From a virus (taxonomy: Duplodnaviria > Heunggongvirae > Uroviricota > Caudoviricetes), in the IMG/VR virus record IMGVR_UViG_2939521961_000002: DNA of 47,124 nt. One strand, written 5' to 3'. The first letter of the stretch is position 1. Every line of letters begins with the position of its first letter. This document shows, one piece after another, positions 3,843-20,712 of the stretch. A model generated the notes under the pieces. That model was not told the DNA's origin, searched no databases, and saw only the letters and a program-made list of their open reading frames with translations. The position numbers and the translations under genes were made by a program.

Positions 3843-4169
3843 ATGACTAAAAATACTCGTTTTTCCCCCGAAGTCCGTCAGCGGGCGATTCGTATGGTTC
3901 TGGAAAGTCAGGATGAATATGACTCACAGTGGGCGGCAATTTGTTCCATTGCCCCAAAGATTGGCTGTACGCCGGAGACTCTGCGTGTCTGGGTTCGCCA
4001 GCATGAGCGGGATACCGGGGGCGGTGATGGTGGGCTCACCAGTGCTGAACGTCAGCGTCTGAAAGAGCTGGAACGTGAAAATCGTGAACTGCGCCGCAGT
4101 AACGATATCCTTCGCCAGGCTTCCGCTTATTTTGCGAAGGCGGAGTTCGACCGCCTCTGGAAAAAATGA
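3843..4169 (+). CDS. IS3-family transposase OrfA (HTH)
   Basis: 108 aa [30 protein letters not shown]...; leucine-zipper-like C-terminus; overlaps orfB by 4 nt at an A-rich site typical of -1 frameshifting. Confidence 0.85.
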
Positions 4170-5056
4170 TGCCACTGCTGGATAAGCTGCGTGAGCAGTA
4201 CGGGGTCGGACCGGTATGCAGCGAACTGCATATTGCCCCGTCAACGTATTACCATTGTCAGCAACAGCGACATCATCCGGATAAACGCAGTGCCCGTGCG
4301 CAGCACGATGACTGGCTGAAGAAAGAGATACAGCGCGTATACGATGAAAATCACCAGGTATACGGTGTGCGTAAAGTCTGGCGTCAGTTGTTACGGGAAG
4401 GTATCAGAGTGGCCAGATGCACTGTGGCACGTCTCATGGCAGTTATGGGACTTGCCGGTGTTCTCCGGGGTAAAAAGGTCCGCACTACCGTCAGCCGGAA
4501 AGCCGTTGCCGCATGCGACCGCGTAAACCGTCAGTTCGTGGCAGAACGTCCAGACCAGTTGTGGGTGGCTGATTTTACCTGGGTAAGCACATGGCAGGGC
4601 TTCGTTTATGTGGCGTTCATCATTGATGTGTTCGCCGGATACATCGTGGGATGGCAGGTCTCATCATCCATGGAAACAACATTCGTGCTGGATGCACTGG
4701 AGCAGGCGTTGTGGGCCCGTCGGCCGTCCGGCACAATCCATCACAGTGATAAAGGTTCTCAGTATGTATCGCTGGCCTACACGCAGCGGCTTAAGGAAGC
4801 CGGATTACTGGCATCAACAGGGAGTACTGGCGACTCGTATGACAACGCGATGGCTGAGAGCATCAATGGTCTTTACAAAGCGGAGGTAATACACCGTAAT
4901 AGCTGGAAAAACCGGACAGAAGTGGAACTGGCCACACTAACGTGGGTGGACTGGTATAACAATCGACGATTGCTGGAAAGGCTGGGCCATATTCCTCCGG
5001 CAGAAGCAGAAAAAGCTTATTATGCTTCCATCGGAAATAATGATCTGGCAGCCTGA
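4166..5056 (+). CDS. IS3-family transposase OrfB (DDE integrase core)
   Basis: 296 aa with DDE-type catalytic core (…WVADFT…HSDKGSQY…YDNAMAES…). Confidence 0.85.
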
Positions 5057-8445: not shown

Positions 8446-8985
8446 ATGCAACCACTTCCATACCAACAGACTAGCGGATTTAGCCCGACTGCGGTGATAA
8501 ATCGTTCTCAAACAAAACAGGTGCCAGGCCACGAAAAAATCCGTGATGCCGTCCGCGCCTGGTCGGCTGTAGATAATCAGGATGTCGTTGCCACACTCAT
8601 TGTGAATGAGTATCGGGAGCAGGGCGGCGGCACCATCGATTTCCCTGATGATGTCAGCCGTACACGCCAGAAGCTGTTCCGCTTCCTCGATAACAAATTC
8701 GATTCTGAAAAATACCGAAATAACGTGCGTGAACTGACCCCGGCAATTCTGGCGGTACTACCGCTGGAATATCGCGGTTACCTGGTTGAGCAGGATAGCT
8801 TCATGGCTAGGTTGGCTGAAATGGAAAAGGAACTCAGTGAGGCAAAACAGGCTGTCATTCTCAACGCACCACGCCACCAGAAACTGAAGGAAATTAGTGA
8901 AGGTATTGTGTCGATGTTTCGTGTGGACCCAGAGCTGGCTGGTCCATTGATGGCGATGGTTACTACCATGCTGGGGGCGATATGA
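8446..8985 (+). CDS. Putative CII-like / YdaT-family early regulator
   Basis: 179 aa with strong RBS (AAGGAG); position equivalent to cII between cro and O; family assignment from weak recall only. Confidence 0.35.
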   Translation: MQPLPYQQTSGFSPTAVINRSQTKQVPGHEKIRDAVRAWSAVDNQDVVATLIVNEYREQGGGTIDFPDDVSRTRQKLFRFLDNKFDSEKYRNNVRELTPAILAVLPLEYRGYLVEQDSFMARLAEMEKELSEAKQAVILNAPRHQKLKEISEGIVSMFRVDPELAGPLMAMVTTMLGAI

Positions 8986-10903: not shown

Positions 10904-11251
10904 TTAAAGCTCAGAAAGCTGTGATAATATTTTTTCTGGAGTGGTTTCGTTGGAAATGCTAAATAATACAGCACCTTTGACTGATTCATCTCTCATTTCA
11001 ATTTCACATGAATTATGGTTGTATGAGATTGCATAATTTTTTAATGTTCTTTCGCTTTGCCACCACACCATATTTGCAAGACTTCCGTTATACGTTCTTA
11101 TCTCGATTGATCCGGGCAGGGCTTTCCAGATAACACCTCCTAGCAATGTAAGAGCGGCTGCACCAACATTTTTTGCATGATGGTTAGAACGTTCCATTAC
11201 CCCTTCAGCATAACGATGAAGAATCTCTATGTCAGTCGCTTTGATAGTCAT
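10904..11251 (-). CDS. Hypothetical orphan protein (115 aa) in AT-rich island
   Basis: Reverse-oriented relative to replication genes; about 30% GC on hand count; candidate extended -10 (TGcTATATT) about 50 nt upstream on the minus strand; no family recognised. Confidence 0.5.
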   Translation of the reverse strand: MTIKATDIEILHRYAEGVMERSNHHAKNVGAAALTLLGGVIWKALPGSIEIRTYNGSLANMVWWQSERTLKNYAISYNHNSCEIEMRDESVKGAVLFSISNETTPEKILSQLSEL

Positions 11252-11480
11252 GTTATTTCCATGTAATTGCTGTGTGAAACGTAGTGTTAGTTAGGTGTTA
11301 GCAGAATATAGCATCAAAGTCGAAACCGGTAGAAAAAATATTGGTGATTATTTCGCTGCATTTGGAACTGGAACAACAATGATTATTAGCATGATTGCTT
11401 TTTCCAGTCATAAGAATGAGTCGTGTTAATTTTTTCTATTCAATAGGAAATTATCATGTCATCAGAATATGAACAACTAC

Positions 11481-11572
11481 GGTGACTTCTGCGCTAAACG
11501 GGGACGTTTATGCGCACATACAATCCAAACTCTCTTCTCCCTCCACAGATGCAGAAATACACCTGCGATTTT
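11481..11572 (+). repeat. 92-bp direct repeat, copy 1 (5' part of a small ORF)
   Basis: GGTGACTTCTGCGCTAAACGGGGACGTTTATGCGCACATACAATC...CACCTGCGATTTT; about 5 mismatches with copy 2 at 13803..13894. Confidence 0.85.
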
Positions 11573-11650
11573 TTGCATTCGGTGTTTTTGGCAGCCAAGA
11601 ACAGGGAGTCTCTGTTTGTCTGGCGGCTAAAGGTGATATGGAAATCGTGA
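11510..11650 (+). CDS. Small ORF (46 aa) initiated inside repeat copy 1
   Basis: ATG 6 nt after [26 protein letters not shown]...; N-terminal 21 codons shared with the small ORF at 13832. Confidence 0.3.
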
Positions 11651-11729: not shown

Positions 11730-11759
11730 TTGACGACATTATTTATCCGGCGCTATATT
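11730..11759 (+). promoter_or_regulatory. Putative sigma70 promoter upstream of the Bro-N gene
   Basis: TTGACG (11730..11735), 17-18 nt spacer, CTATAT/TATATT (11753..11759). Confidence 0.4.
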
Positions 11760-11819
11760 CTGTGCGTTGCCGCAAAATCGGCACACGGGATTGGCGTCCC
11801 GGACATCAAAACGACGCAT

Positions 11820-11840
11820 AACCGCGTTCGCGGTTTTTTT
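11820..11840 (+). terminator. Hairpin plus T7 run in the leader (possible attenuator)
   Basis: AACCGC-GTTC-GCGGTT followed by TTTTTTT, about 55 nt downstream of the putative promoter and upstream of the Bro-N start. Confidence 0.35.
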
Positions 11841-12003
11841 ATGCGCAGTGCACGTCTACACAAAAATTATGGTGGGCTGTGTGAGGGCTTCTTCGGAAGC
11901 GCCGGATTTCGTTTTGACCGGTTACGCCAACCTTGCACAGTCCACCACCAGTCGATTGGCGTCGTCGGTGGTGATAGCTCAAATTCAAAACGAGATTATC
12001 GCT

Positions 12004-12612: not shown

Positions 12613-12911
12613 TAAAGTTGCGGGAGAGAAATGCCGCTAGTATTTTGTAATTAATTGAATGCTGACGGTTTAATGAGAAGTCAAGAACACTACTTGTACT
12701 ATAATCGTTCGATGTTAGTGAGGGTTTGATGCAAAAAATGAAGTGATTGACCCTAAATTTGCGCGATCAGCGACAGATTGTACACCGAGATCCTGTGGGC
12801 TGGAATTTGCAGAGAAATACCGAAAATGATATCCAATATTGTTTTCAGTTCCTACATCATACCTGATAAGGGTATAATCATAAAAATTAGGATAATTCAA
12901 GTTATAATTGT

Positions 12912-13328
12912 ATGAATAAAAACGACCTTGAAGCATTATCTGACACTAGGCTTAATGAGGCCAAATGCTTGCTTGATCATGGCTTTTTTCATGGTGCATA
13001 TTATCTTTGTGGGTATGCAGTTGAATGTGCATTGAAGGCCTGTATTGCCAAGTCATTTTTACAACATGAGTTTCCAAACAAAAAAGTCGTAAATGATTCA
13101 TATACTCATGATTTGTCGCAACTTCTCAAAATTGCCAACTTACATCAAATTTTGATTGCTGACGCAAAAAATGATGTTTCGTTGGAGATTAACTGGTCGG
13201 TCGTTAAAGACTGGAGCGAGCAATTTAGATACGACAATAACATAAGTAAAGCTATGGCCGAACAATTGTTTGATGCTGTAGGTGACCAAAATTCTGGAGT
13301 TTTGAAATGGGTAAAAGCACACTGGTAA
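12912..13328 (+). CDS. HEPN-like domain protein (138 aa)
   Basis: Helix GAYYLCGYAVECALKACIAK plus THDLSQLL and FRYDNN resemble conserved HEPN helices; about 32-37% GC; stop overlaps the next ORF. Confidence 0.5.
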   Translation: MNKNDLEALSDTRLNEAKCLLDHGFFHGAYYLCGYAVECALKACIAKSFLQHEFPNKKVVNDSYTHDLSQLLKIANLHQILIADAKNDVSLEINWSVVKDWSEQFRYDNNISKAMAEQLFDAVGDQNSGVLKWVKAHW

Positions 13329-13708
13329 TCGGCAGAGAGTTGACAAAAGATATGGAATTCTCAGGTCAATTTTTGTTAAAAAAACTCAAGTTACAGAATT
13401 TAACTATTGATGCTGCAATGTGGTTTTATTACCCAGATCTATCTTGGAGATATATTTTAGTTATCAGTGACTTCTCAGAACGTGGGCCGGCAGAAATATA
13501 TAGAAAAATCAGTGAGATAAATAGAAATAGCATATCAAAAAAGTATAAGCCGATACCATTAGAAGCAATTGAGGCTAAGGGGGATTCAGCTTTTGTTTAT
13601 AAAATGTTAAAAGGATTTGCTAGAGTCAACGATGGTAAAGTTCGCGTTTCTAATTCTATGGTAAATGGTTTAGAAATCGTTGACTGTCTGATCTATGAGT
13701 TAAAATAA
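13307..13708 (+). CDS. Hypothetical protein (133 aa) translationally coupled to the HEPN-like gene
   Basis: ATG 8 nt after GGAG, overlapping the upstream ORF by 22 nt; no nucleotidyltransferase GS/DxD motif seen; no family recognised. Confidence 0.5.
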   Translation: MGKSTLVIGRELTKDMEFSGQFLLKKLKLQNLTIDAAMWFYYPDLSWRYILVISDFSERGPAEIYRKISEINRNSISKKYKPIPLEAIEAKGDSAFVYKMLKGFARVNDGKVRVSNSMVNGLEIVDCLIYELK

Positions 13709-13802
13709 GAAATCTCTTGCTGGGTATCATTATTGTTTAAATGACTTTTGATTTTCAATAATCAACTTGTCATAATTAAGTCACCGGAGTTTGAACTCCT
13801 CC

Positions 13803-13894
13803 GGTGACTTCTGCGCTAAACGGGGACGTTTATGCGCACATACAATCTAAACTATCTTCTCCCGTCACAGATGCAGAAATGCACCTGCGATTTT
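13803..13894 (+). repeat. 92-bp direct repeat, copy 2 (5' part of the small ORF preceding ybcN/ninB)
   Basis: Matches 11481..11572 with about 5 mismatches; preceded by a 10-bp-stem hairpin whose 3' arm lies inside the repeat. Confidence 0.85.
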
Positions 13895-13933
13895 CTTTAT
13901 CCAGCGTTTGACCTCTGCGGAGGTGAAGCGTGA
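13832..13933 (+). CDS. Small ORF (33 aa) coupled to ybcN/ninB
   Basis: ATG after GGGGA; stop TGA overlaps the GTG start of the next gene (GTGA). Confidence 0.3.
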
Positions 13934-15991: not shown

Positions 15992-17074
15992 TTAGAACTG
16001 GTAAACCATACCTACAGCAACGATATCATCGGTAGCAACGCCAGATGCTTTCGTGAAATCGCTCTTATCAATCAGGTTGATTTTGTAGTCAACAAAAGTG
16101 GACATATTTTTGTTGAAGTAATAGGTTGCACCTACATCAATATATTCAACCAGGTCCTGATCACCCCAAGCACCCAAGTCTTTCCCTTTAGATTGCAGAT
16201 AAGCAACGGACGGACGCAGACCGAAGTCGAACTGATATTGTGCAACTACTTCGAAGTTTTGTGCTTTGTTGGCAATATGGTTTTTACCAAAAACAGTCAT
16301 GTTTTGGGTTTCAGAATAGGTAGTAGCCAGATAGATGTTGTTCGCATCATATTTCAGACCAGCTGCCCATACTTCAGCATTTTGACCAGATGCATTCAGG
16401 CTGTTGTTACCGTAGATAACCTGATTATTAGTGCGATCAGATTTAGCATAGGTTGCACCTACGCCGAAACCTTCATACTCATAAGTAGTGGAGAAACCGA
16501 AACCATCACCATTAGCTTGAGTTACGTCAGTACGGTCATTTTTACCCTGATACTGAGCAGCAAAGTTCAGACCATCAACCAGACCAAAGAAGTCATTGTT
16601 ACGATAAGTTGCAACACCTGTGGTGCGACCAGTCATGAATACATCTGTTTGGGTCCAGGTATCGCCACCGAATTCTGGCAGAACGTCGGTCCATGCACCA
16701 ATATCGTATGCTACACCGTAGTTACGGCCATAATCGATGGAGCCGTAGTCACCGAATTTCAGGCCAGCGAAGGCAAGACGGGTTTTATCTTTGGAGGAAC
16801 CTTGAGATTCAGCGCGGTTGCCTTTGAATTCATATTCCCACTGACCGAAACCAGTCAGTTGATCGTTGATTTGGGTTTCACCTTTGAAGCCAAGACGGGC
16901 ATAAGTAGTATCACCATCATCTGCATCATTAGAGGAGAAGTAGTGCTTAGCATTAACTTTCCCGTACAGATCCAGCTTGTTACTGTCTTTATTATAAATT
17001 TCAGCTGCCTGAGCAGACATCGCCATCAGTACTGATGCAGCTACAGCAGAAATTGCCACTGTTAATTTTTTCAT
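15992..17074 (-). CDS. nmpC: Outer-membrane porin (OmpC/OmpF/NmpC family), intact
   Basis: 360 aa with signal peptide [23 protein letters not shown], aromatic-rich beta-barrel sequence ending ...VAVGMVYQF; convergent to the late operon, as nmpC in DLP12. Confidence 0.88.
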
Positions 17075-18864: not shown

Positions 18865-19158
18865 TTATTGTGAGCAATACACACGCGCTTCCAGCGGAGT
18901 ATAAATGCCTAAAGTAATAAAACCGAGCAATCCATTTACGAATGTTTGCTGGGTTTCTGTTTTAACAACATTTTCTGCGCCGCCACAAATTTTGGCTGCA
19001 TCAACAGTTTTCTCCTGTCCAATTCCCGAAACGAAGAAGTGATGGGTGATGGTTTCCTTTGGTGTTACTGCTGTCGGTTTGTTTCCAACAGTAAACGTCT
19101 GTTGAGCACATCCTGTAATAAGCATTGCCAGAGCGGCAGAAAACAACATTTTTTTCAT
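18865..19158 (-). CDS. bor: Bor lipoprotein (serum-resistance family)
   Basis: 97 aa from internal ATG MKKMLFSAALAMLITGCAQQTFTV... matches lambda Bor; lipobox ITGC. Confidence 0.9.
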   Translation of the reverse strand: MKKMLFSAALAMLITGCAQQTFTVGNKPTAVTPKETITHHFFVSGIGQEKTVDAAKICGGAENVVKTETQQTFVNGLLGFITLGIYTPLEARVYCSQ

Positions 19159-19498: not shown

Positions 19499-20389
19499 TC
19501 AGGCTGCCAGATCATCGTTTCCGATGGAAGCATAATAAGCTTTTTCTGCTTCTGCCGGAGGAGTATGGCCCAGCCTTCCCAGCAATCGTCGATTGTTATA
19601 CCAGTCCACCCACGTTAGTGTGGCCAGTTCCACTTCTGCACGGTTTTTCCAGCTCTTACGGTGTATTACCTCCGCTTTGTAAAGACCATTGATGCTCTCA
19701 GCCATCGCGTTGTCATACGAGTCGCCTGTACTCCCTGTTGATGCCAGTAATCCGGCTTCTTTTAGTCGCTCCGTATAGGCCAGTGACACATACTGAGAGC
19801 CTTTATCGCTGTAATGGATGGTGCCAGACGGACGACGGGCCCACAACGCCTGCTCCAGCGCATCCAGCACGAATGTCGTTTCCATAGACGATGAGACCCG
19901 CCCCCCCACGATGTATCCGGCAAACACATCAATGATAAACGCCACATAGACGAAGCCCTGCCATGTGCTGACGTAAGTAAAATCAGCCACCCACAGCTGG
20001 TCAGGACGTTCTGCCACGAACTGACGGTTTACGCGGTCACCTGTGGCAACGGTTTTCCGGCTGACGGTAGTGCGGACCTTTTTACCCCGGAGAACACCGG
20101 CAAGTCCCATAACCGCCATGAGGCGCGCCACTGTACATCTGGCCACCCTGATTCCTTCCCGTAACAACTGACGCCAGACTTTACGCACACCGTACACCTG
20201 ATGATTTTCATCGTATACGCGCTGTATCTCTCTCTTCAGCCAGTCATCGTGCTGCGCACGGGCACTGCGTTTATCCGGATGATGTCGCTGTTGCTGACAA
20301 TGGTAATACGTTGACGGGGCAATATGCAGTTCGCTGCATACCGGTCCGACCCCGTACTGCTCACGCAGCTTATCCAGCAGTGGCATCAT
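19499..20389 (-). CDS. IS3-family transposase OrfB, copy 2
   Basis: 296 aa; near-identical to 4166..5056 product with several substitutions. Confidence 0.85.
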
Positions 20390-20712
20390 TTTTTCCAGAG
20401 GCGGTCGAACTCCGCCTTCGCAAAATAAGCGGAAGCCTGGCGAAGGATATCGTTACTGCGGCGCAGTTCACGATTTTCACGTTCCAGCTCTTTCAGACGC
20501 TGACGTTCAGCGCTGGTGAGCCCACCATCACCGCCCCCGGTATCCCGCTCATGCTGGCGAACCCAGACACGCAGGGTCTCCGGCGTACAGCCAATCTTTG
20601 GGGCAATGGAACAAATTGCCGCCCACTGTGAGTCATATTCATCCTGACTTTCCAGAACCATACGAATCGCCCGCTGACGGACTTCGGGGGAAAAACGAGT
20701 ATTTTTAGTCAT
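20386..20712 (-). CDS. IS3-family transposase OrfA, copy 2
   Basis: 108 aa identical in length to 3843..4169 product. Confidence 0.85.

Follow-up and report, generated by a model that had tools for sequence, protein, structure and literature searches.

A mobile gene pair encoding a divergent HEPN protein and a partner of an undescribed family in a lambdoid prophage of Escherichia coli

What is encoded by a small AT-rich pair of overlapping genes lying between the replication genes and the nin region of a lambdoid prophage, and does it belong to any HEPN-based conflict system already described? Here we address this question for positions 12912-13708 of the IMG/VR virus record IMGVR_UViG_2939521961_000002, a 47,124-nt stretch of Caudoviricetes DNA (the whole stretch is hereafter called the window) that represents a DLP12-like lambdoid prophage of enterohaemorrhagic E. 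coli (EHEC). A preliminary description, made from the letters and their open reading frames (ORFs), had proposed a candidate toxin-antitoxin (TA) or abortive-infection (Abi) module. With moderate confidence, and from sequence comparison, we read the pair as an uncharacterised mobile HEPN conflict module of the TA/Abi type, in which the first protein, A, would be the effector and the second, B, its inhibitor or regulator. Counted for this reading are the obligate pairing of the two genes, their natural fusions, the invariant polar residues of A, the mobility of the pair, its TA and restriction-modification neighbours, and its place in the P-ninB slot. The proposal made in the preliminary description is thus supported by pairing, mobility, prophage hotspot and neighbourhood, and the function that it assigns is one that we continue to infer.

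The gene pair and its junction

Gene A (12912..13328, plus strand, ATG start) encodes a divergent protein of 138 aa whose HEPN domain is of the PF05168 / HEPN-T type (HEPN-T as defined by Anantharaman et al. 2013), the presumed effector, and gene B (13307..13708, plus strand, ATG start) encodes a 133-aa member of a family without description, the presumed inhibitor or regulator of A. The RefSeq entries for the two products are WP_001038620.1 ('HEPN domain-containing protein') and WP_000520500.1 ('hypothetical protein'), respectively. The pair is placed between replication gene P and ybcN (ninB-like), 3' of a gene for a Bro-N/P22AR_C antirepressor. This region is 100% identical to that of O26:H11 strain 11368 and of many O26 and O103 genomes; at ≥99% identity the pair is present in 190 of 5,426 complete E. 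coli genomes (3.5%), mainly in O26 and O103 EHEC prophages. The GC content of the A+B module is 0.351 versus 0.454 in the ±4 kb flanks, and it stays at 0.34-0.35 over 12801-13600, in accord with an earlier hand count of 32-37%, well under the flanks. That A and B are genuine genes, and no chance ORFs of AT-rich DNA, is shown by their RefSeq annotation, by the hundreds of homologues that each has in different phyla, and by 132 of 135 independent loci in which gene order and overlap are repeated.

The ORF list confirms that the two genes overlap by 22 nt (13307..13328, plus strand), as first described. The ATG of B spans the xxA-TGG of the conserved Trp133 of A, and the stop codon of A follows Trp138 (TGG-TAA). 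The Shine-Dalgarno sequence of B, GGAG (13296..13299, plus strand), lies within A, in the codons of the conserved Gly129-Val130; it had been recognised correctly, except that its distance from the ATG of B is 7 nt rather than 8. G129 is 98% conserved, and GG(A/G)G occupies the same place at the junction in all of more than 25 phylogenetically distant loci. Because the Shine-Dalgarno sequence and start codon of B are written in conserved codons of A, translation of B is structurally tied to that of A, and the coupled expression that had been deduced from the overlap is strongly supported by the conservation of the 22-nt junction.

A B homologue lies directly 3' of the HEPN gene, on the same strand, in 132 of 135 A-family loci, the three unpaired cases being one contig end, one A-B fusion and one nonsense mutation in B. 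Of the 132 paired loci, 121 share an overlap of exactly 22 nt; in the remainder the two genes overlap by 7 nt (seven loci), 4 nt or 64 nt, or are separated by 11 or 21 nt. Viewed from B, a full HEPN gene stands upstream in 57 of 66 evaluable loci and a disrupted one in nine, and two further loci are fusions. The pair therefore shows the generic pattern of type II-like TA systems, that is, two small neighbouring genes in the same orientation, inherited together and coupled. Furthermore, natural A-B fusions, with A first, were found in four independent loci (L061, L139/P0192, L166 and L219); the L139 fusion, of 266 aa, sits at the purM-purH position at which L006 has two overlapping genes. As fusions are classical evidence of joint action, the products of A and B are expected to act together, and we infer that they are physically associated in one complex.

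The two proteins

Protein A is a genuine, if divergent, member of the HEPN proteins. It matches Pfam PF05168 with 27.8 bits (gathering score 22; E 3e-6), residues 12-118 falling on profile positions 10-102 of 117, and a precomputed match to this family is carried by most of its database relatives; A also matches phrog_5737. An AlphaFold2 model, obtained with an alignment of 58 sequences, is all-helical with a predicted local distance difference test (pLDDT) score of 94.8. When this model was compared with the PDB using Foldseek, the top six matches were all HEPN proteins (1wol, 1o3u, 1ufb, 2q00, 4nqf and 2hsb; by name ST0689, TM0613, TT1696, SsR10, 4nqf and AF_0298), with probabilities of 0.96-0.99 for the top four, template modelling (TM) scores of 0.46-0.60 and E values of about 0.2-0.9. 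The TM-scores of merely ~0.5-0.6 mark the domain as divergent, and PDB sequence and profile searches returned no chain of a solved homologue. The profile score above the cut-off and the six fold matches bear out the earlier view of A as HEPN-like, and the peptides that had been singled out (GAYYLCGYAVECALKACIAK, THDLSQLL and FRYDNN) are all found in its translation.

Residue conservation in A was measured over 110 unique family sequences. L20, Y31, L32, G34, Y35, E38, K42, P55, H66, L71, W101, R106 and Y107 are the same in all of these, and R13 in 98%; an enzyme-like polar set, composed of R13, E38, K42, H66, R106 and Y107, thus stands at 98-100%. H66 lies within the THDL helix, and it and Y107 are invariant where the canonical Rx4-6H motif, which catalytically active HEPN RNases have at the start of helix 4, is absent. 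For PF05168 HEPNs 'a conserved H elsewhere' has been noted (PMC3710099), and H66 is that residue in A. The putative HEPN Arg and His residues of the preliminary description are accordingly present as R106 and H66, but they do not form a contiguous motif.

Protein B represents a large family without a description or a detectable structural neighbour. Neither B nor 66 of its relatives matches any model in Pfam, NCBIfam or PADLOC even at E≤10, searches of the PDB by sequence or profile gave no solved homologue, and the B model has no significant fold match in the PDB or BFVD; the first impression that the partner is not an MNT protein and matches nothing known is thereby upheld. B matches phrog_5760, a family of unknown function. 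The AlphaFold2 model of B (pLDDT 91.9) is a compact alpha/beta domain with helices (H) and strands (E) in the order H14-29, E34-42, E46-53, H56-74, E88-91, H96-101, E112-119 and E122-132. A profile search yielded 345 relatives and an exhaustive search 797 clusters at the 50% level, and distant partners were confirmed as homologous to B (hhalign probability ~97%, E~1e-12). Conservation of ≥90% is seen at only L12, G20, L27, W39, W47, Y65 and Y130; there are no conserved catalytic residues, no invariant polar residues that would hint at catalysis and no conserved acidic pair, and G60 is 82% conserved. Identification of B as an MNT nucleotidyltransferase was rejected, as no match to NTP_transf_2 or a related family was found among B and the 66 relatives at E≤10, and the G[GS] and [DE]x[DE] motifs of a minimal nucleotidyltransferase with the Pol-beta fold are lacking. 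In the same loci, identity to the window proteins is 50% (45-56) for A and 27% (18-37) for B, and on these figures B evolves about twice as fast as A.

Mobility of the pair and the lambdoid cassette

The distribution of the pair was surveyed by an A-anchored pattern search of one genome per species, plus viral contigs, and by a second scan from the partner sub-alignment. At least 561 relatives of A were found in species-representative genomes and 44 more in viral contigs, the phyla including Acidobacteriota, Planctomycetota, Chloroflexota, Desulfobacterota, Proteobacteria, Bacteroidota, Verrucomicrobiota, Gemmatimonadota and Latescibacterota. Flanking genes are unrelated between loci, the largest shared homologous cluster covering 5 of 87 loci, and the GC content of the module is more than 5 points under that of the flanks in 58 of 83 loci and above it in one. 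Moreover, one metagenome-assembled genome has two copies (L056, L059). The patchy, mobile distribution, independent of neighbours, that characterises TA systems is thus seen here in flanks, GC content, phage carriage and the two-copy genome, and rather than being peculiar to E. coli the pair is an ancient unit of two genes, mobile and very widespread. One pair, with an A that is 52% identical and a 22-nt overlap, is also found on a contig of 14.9 kb (L016, JAUWZS010000012.1) whose bin was assigned to a Candidatus Aenigmatarchaeota archaeon; it reflects either inter-domain transfer or a binning artefact.

Some neighbourhoods contain recognised conflict genes. The pair adjoins PIN, HicB and Fic genes in L004, a PIN gene in L009 and CcdAB in L136, and in L138:1-7370 it is inserted within a DUF499/DUF3780/DUF1156/PLD-SNF2 helicase cluster that looks like a restriction-modification-type defence system. 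PF05168 HEPNs have been reported to cluster with restriction-modification operons (PMC3710099).

The slot between P and ninB/ninE is also where enterobacterial lambdoid phages carry variants of the pair, at 58-100% identity. Nucleotide homology among phages with different flanks is limited to about 12867-13720, that is, the two ORFs and a ~45-nt leader; homology to lambdoid viral contigs starts at 12866-12871 and ends at 13708-13720. The leader (12867..12911, plus strand) contains a promoter-like element with a perfect -10 hexamer, TATAAT, at 12873-12878. Related phage copies have GTTACA, an 18-nt spacer and then TATAAT, and at the -35 position the window has GTTCCT, a weak match that caused the element to be missed by a strict consensus scan. 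In the leader alignment, GGGTATAAT is conserved in L106-L116 and L107. This element probably acts as a promoter; a self-contained unit, here of ~850 bp, that brings genes with their own promoter into a prophage accessory region is what marks a 'moron'. No known RNA was detected by Rfam within the cassette, isrK and C4 being the closest, 5' of the antirepressor gene.

Just 3' of B, beyond the mobile cassette, stands a perfect 10-bp palindrome (GTCACCGGAG...CTCCGGTGAC; 13781..13809, plus strand), which may terminate cassette transcripts. It belongs to a conserved promoter/operator/orf33 unit before ybcN, and in phage 82 (record X92588) the element is annotated as a 'possible regulator-binding site'. 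Its candidacy as the cassette's own terminator was therefore downgraded, the hairpin being part of a phage 82-like nin-region unit outside the cassette. The same unit forms the downstream copy (13748-13909) of a 162-nt direct repeat, the upstream copy of which (11426..11587, plus strand) includes a duplicated 5' fragment of orf33 that RefSeq gives as an incomplete pseudogene. By pairwise alignment the copies are 81% identical overall and about 95% identical in a core of ~100 nt. They bracket a 2.2-kb insert holding isrK, C4, the antirepressor gene and the HEPN pair, which suggests that this segment arrived by recombination at a conserved boundary sequence. Within it, the Hfq-binding small RNA isrK (11768-11840, plus strand; Rfam 64.1 bits) lies upstream of the Bro-N/P22AR_C antirepressor gene, followed by the C4 antisense RNA (11865-11952, plus strand; 82.5 bits), and a promoter-like site is found at 11730-11759. 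Together with the antirepressor gene, the two RNAs look like a P1/P7 immI-like or Gifsy-1 isrK-anrP-like control module directly 5' of the HEPN cassette.

The window holds other accessory genes. A 115-aa ORF on the minus strand (10904-11251; GC ~0.38) matches PF18315, 'Integron cassette protein VCH_CASS14' (E 5.7e-20), and phrog_5959. This is a further small accessory gene of the P-nin slot, and only some of the related prophages have it. In a cII-like position beside a cro-like regulator, 8446-8985 (plus strand; mapped from L001 4747-5286) encodes what RefSeq calls a 'toxin YdaT domain-containing protein', so that the prophage has another TA-associated domain, this one in its immunity region. 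Between the Q antiterminator and the lysis cassette there is a gene for a 360-aa OmpC/NmpC-like porin (15992-17074, minus strand), and the lysis genes are followed by one for an iss/bor lipoprotein (about 18865-19158), the two being typical lysogenic-conversion cargo of the DLP12 type. ALIL frameshifting pseudoknots at 4124-4240 (plus strand) and 20315-20431 (minus strand) indicate two IS3-family insertion sequences in opposite orientations, one of which interrupts the region beyond the lysis genes and iss; an IS009 RNA lies at 46883-47081 (plus strand), near the window end.

Relation to known systems and the role of the pair

In its functioning the module is most like the HEPN-based TA/Abi pairs, and it is a member of no described one. 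With the HEPN-MNT systems (HepT/MntA, type VII TA) it shares the small two-gene format, a HEPN of ~130-140 aa from the nucleotidyltransferase-associated group, mobility, a wide distribution and occasional fusion. Here, however, the partner is no nucleotidyltransferase and A is without Rx4-6H(xY), so that neutralisation by AMPylation cannot apply, and the partner gene is 3' of the HEPN gene in all 132 paired loci, whereas in the known dyads MNT is 'almost always' 5' of HEPN (PMC3710099). The earlier judgement that this is not a canonical HEPN/MNT module thus holds on partner identity, gene order and motif alike. HepS of the Salmonella prophage Gifsy-1, which occupies the same P-ninB/ninE slot, is a solo HEPN Abi protein with a canonical R100-x4-H105 and no conserved neighbour; it is constitutively expressed and non-toxic until triggered (PMC13043305). 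It resembles A in being encoded in a lambdoid accessory region beside replication genes and an antirepressor, and sets a precedent for constitutive HEPN defence by prophages. In contrast, the present pair has an obligate partner and no RX4-6H, and there is no detectable sequence similarity between HepS and A; HepS was found for A neither in PDB sequence searches nor among the top 50 fold matches.

The PADLOC model PDC-M28A (138 positions) is matched, weakly, by A (E 1.8e-7) and by 58 of 58 A-family members (best E 7.5e-12). A would thus appear to come from a small HEPN family related to that of PDC-M28; B and its 66 relatives match no PADLOC model, so that the second component either differs or has diverged beyond recognition, and the two-component definition of that system does not cover the pair. 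Since the matches are weak, A is at best a sibling subfamily of PDC-M28, an uncharacterised multigene phage-defence candidate, and our literature search found no paper mentioning PDC-M28. RnlA-RnlB and LsoA-LsoB also have the HEPN toxin first, followed by a non-DNA-binding antitoxin of ~120-130 aa, and are anti-phage systems borne by mobile elements; these two toxins, though, are large and multidomain, and their HEPN site is canonical. The pair is like these systems only in gene order, and Pfam and Foldseek searches gave no sequence or fold similarity of A or B to RnlA or RnlB. AbiV, a lactococcal HEPN RNase, is likewise an abortive-infection effector of the HEPN family, and its structures 9bj6 and 9bj7 are weak fold matches of A; the match is poor, however (probability ≤0.21, TM ≤0.39). 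AbiV is also larger than A, and its second component is a phage protein rather than a co-encoded partner. Identity with HepS or AbiV was rejected on the fold search and the HepS paper (PMC13043305), and DS-28 of DefensePredictor was rejected as a different pair. In the parts of the DefensePredictor supplementary tables that were covered, the RefSeq accessions of A and B are absent, and the survey of Klebsiella TA systems by Horesh et al. 2020 does not mention HEPN.

How, then, might the module work? Carried as an accessory 'moron' of a DLP12-like lambdoid prophage, the cassette would specify a complex of A and B, in which A would be the effector HEPN, binding or cleaving RNA. A non-canonical site, formed by R106-Y107 and H66 and possibly R13, E38 and K42, would replace Rx4-6H. 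B, which has no conserved catalytic residues and evolves about twofold faster, is probably a non-enzymatic subunit that restrains or tunes A, either as an antitoxin-like inhibitor or as a trigger sensor. What the cassette would provide in a lysogen is exclusion of superinfecting phages or stabilisation of the prophage by addiction. Only tentatively do we entertain the bolder version, a new widespread HEPN immunity or addiction family with an R106/Y107 plus distal His66 site, an inhibitor or sensor B of new fold, and a stoichiometry fixed by coupling.

Several observations weigh against a conflict module with A as effector. Within the 110 family sequences, the frequency of His never exceeds 12%, nor that of Asp 21%, across positions +1 to +10 after R106; in the absence of Rx4-6H, RNase activity of A is not assured. 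B has no recognisable DNA-binding domain for autoregulation, and the order of effector first, inhibitor second is the rarer arrangement in type II TA systems. Many copies of the pair lie within housekeeping operons, such as purM-[pair]-purH in Chloroflexi and panB-panC, and our literature search found no paper mentioning WP_001038620.1 or WP_000520500.1. Gene decay was examined as a guide to which of the two proteins is the toxin. Using the same coverage criterion on both sides, B-anchored metagenome loci (66) were compared with HEPN-anchored genome loci (75). A HEPN pseudogene stands beside an intact B in nine of the former (three nonsense mutations, four frameshifts and two N-terminal deletions), and a disrupted B beside an intact HEPN gene in three of the latter, a threefold asymmetry that is not significant (Fisher p=0.067) and that compares two different collections. 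Were A the costly component, a trend of this kind would be expected, and L137, in which a complete B is joined to just the first 25 residues of A, is in line with it. Conversely, in L002, L047, L079 and L083 a broken B accompanies a HEPN gene that keeps every invariant residue. A is therefore unlikely to be unconditionally lethal, and a strict relation in which the toxin needs its antitoxin is not established; these four loci may reflect a default-off Abi pair like HepS, or recent or trans-compensated events.

The main rival builds on those same loci. It holds that the pair is a sensor-effector Abi system, in which A would be off by default like HepS and B would sense a phage component and activate it, so that loss of B simply disables the system; we think this unlikely, yet worth more weight than any other alternative. 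The persistence of fully conserved HEPN genes beside broken B agrees with it, as do the twofold faster evolution of B, expected of a subunit that tracks variable phage triggers, the promoter-like element owned by the cassette, and the presence in the same slot of HepS, constitutive and non-toxic until triggered (PMC13043305). On the other hand, the HEPN gene is lost more often (9/66 versus 3/75), which is more typical of a component that is costly alone, and coupling and repeated fusions fit a constitutive stoichiometric complex, though they are compatible with either model. That higher rate of loss also counts against a reversal of roles, in which B would be the harmful effector and the HEPN protein, encoded first, a non-catalytic antitoxin or RNA-binding regulator. 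Such a reversal draws on the antitoxin gene being first in most type II systems (argued for MNT-HEPN in PMC3710099), on the lack of Rx4-6H in A and on the four loci with B broken and A intact. However, A has six invariant or near-invariant polar residues and B none, the more conserved protein, here A by the identities given above, is usually the toxin, and a complete B left after internal deletion of A in L137 would be unfavourable were B toxic; we regard the reversal as improbable.

Slightly more credible than role reversal, and still well short of likely, is that the pair forms no conflict system at all but a cellular factor of two subunits, such as a regulatory complex that binds RNA or nucleotides, which phages occasionally acquire. 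The family is very broad and well conserved, A has no canonical RNase motif, and the curated defence and TA catalogues lack the pair save for the weak match to a candidate model. The purM-[pair]-purH position in a housekeeping operon is, moreover, stable in a lineage, being kept in L006, L007, L022 and L139 (Chloroflexota), which indicates that the cassette can be stably inherited after insertion. Set against a cellular role are the unrelated flanks in nearly all loci, the systematically lower GC content of the module, at least one genome with two copies, the frequent pseudogenisation of both genes, the movement of the pair as a minimal 850-bp cassette among lambdoid phages, the TA and restriction-modification neighbourhoods, and its restriction to the small fraction of complete E. 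coli genomes reported above. The least probable of the alternatives makes B a degenerate, catalytically dead MNT and the pair a decayed HEPN-MNT (type VII) module that neutralises by binding alone. A does belong to the HEPN family normally paired with MNT (PMC3710099), and B has non-significant Foldseek matches to chains E and F of the HEPN-MNT complex 7ae9 (subunit not identified; probability 0.28-0.30, TM 0.32-0.33). Its succession of a strand, a Gly-Pro turn (G60, 82% conserved, and P61), a helix and a strand in which Asp is common (position 87, in 38 of 113) is loosely like a nucleotidyltransferase core; the profile and motif results for B, described above, led to its rejection as an MNT.

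HEPN nucleases are among the commonest effectors in bacterial immunity and TA biology, and since HEPN domains are so frequent in conflict systems the pair is no conceptual surprise. What is added here is a hard-wired 22-nt junction, a non-canonical conserved HEPN site, an undescribed partner family and a promoter-bearing cassette in a known hotspot. The pair is in no curated catalogue and in no paper that we found, and it extends over hundreds of species in at least ten phyla; the system is small (~850 bp), resident in E. coli, unstudied and directly testable. If the favoured reading of a working conflict module is right, a new partner family, without a Pfam entry or structural neighbour, would join the HEPN regulators, and the pair would offer a tractable test of whether motif-less PF05168 HEPN domains act via an alternative His. 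It would also be a further cargo of the lambdoid P-nin hotspot, with a potential influence on superinfection and on the stability of prophages in Shiga-toxin-producing E. coli.

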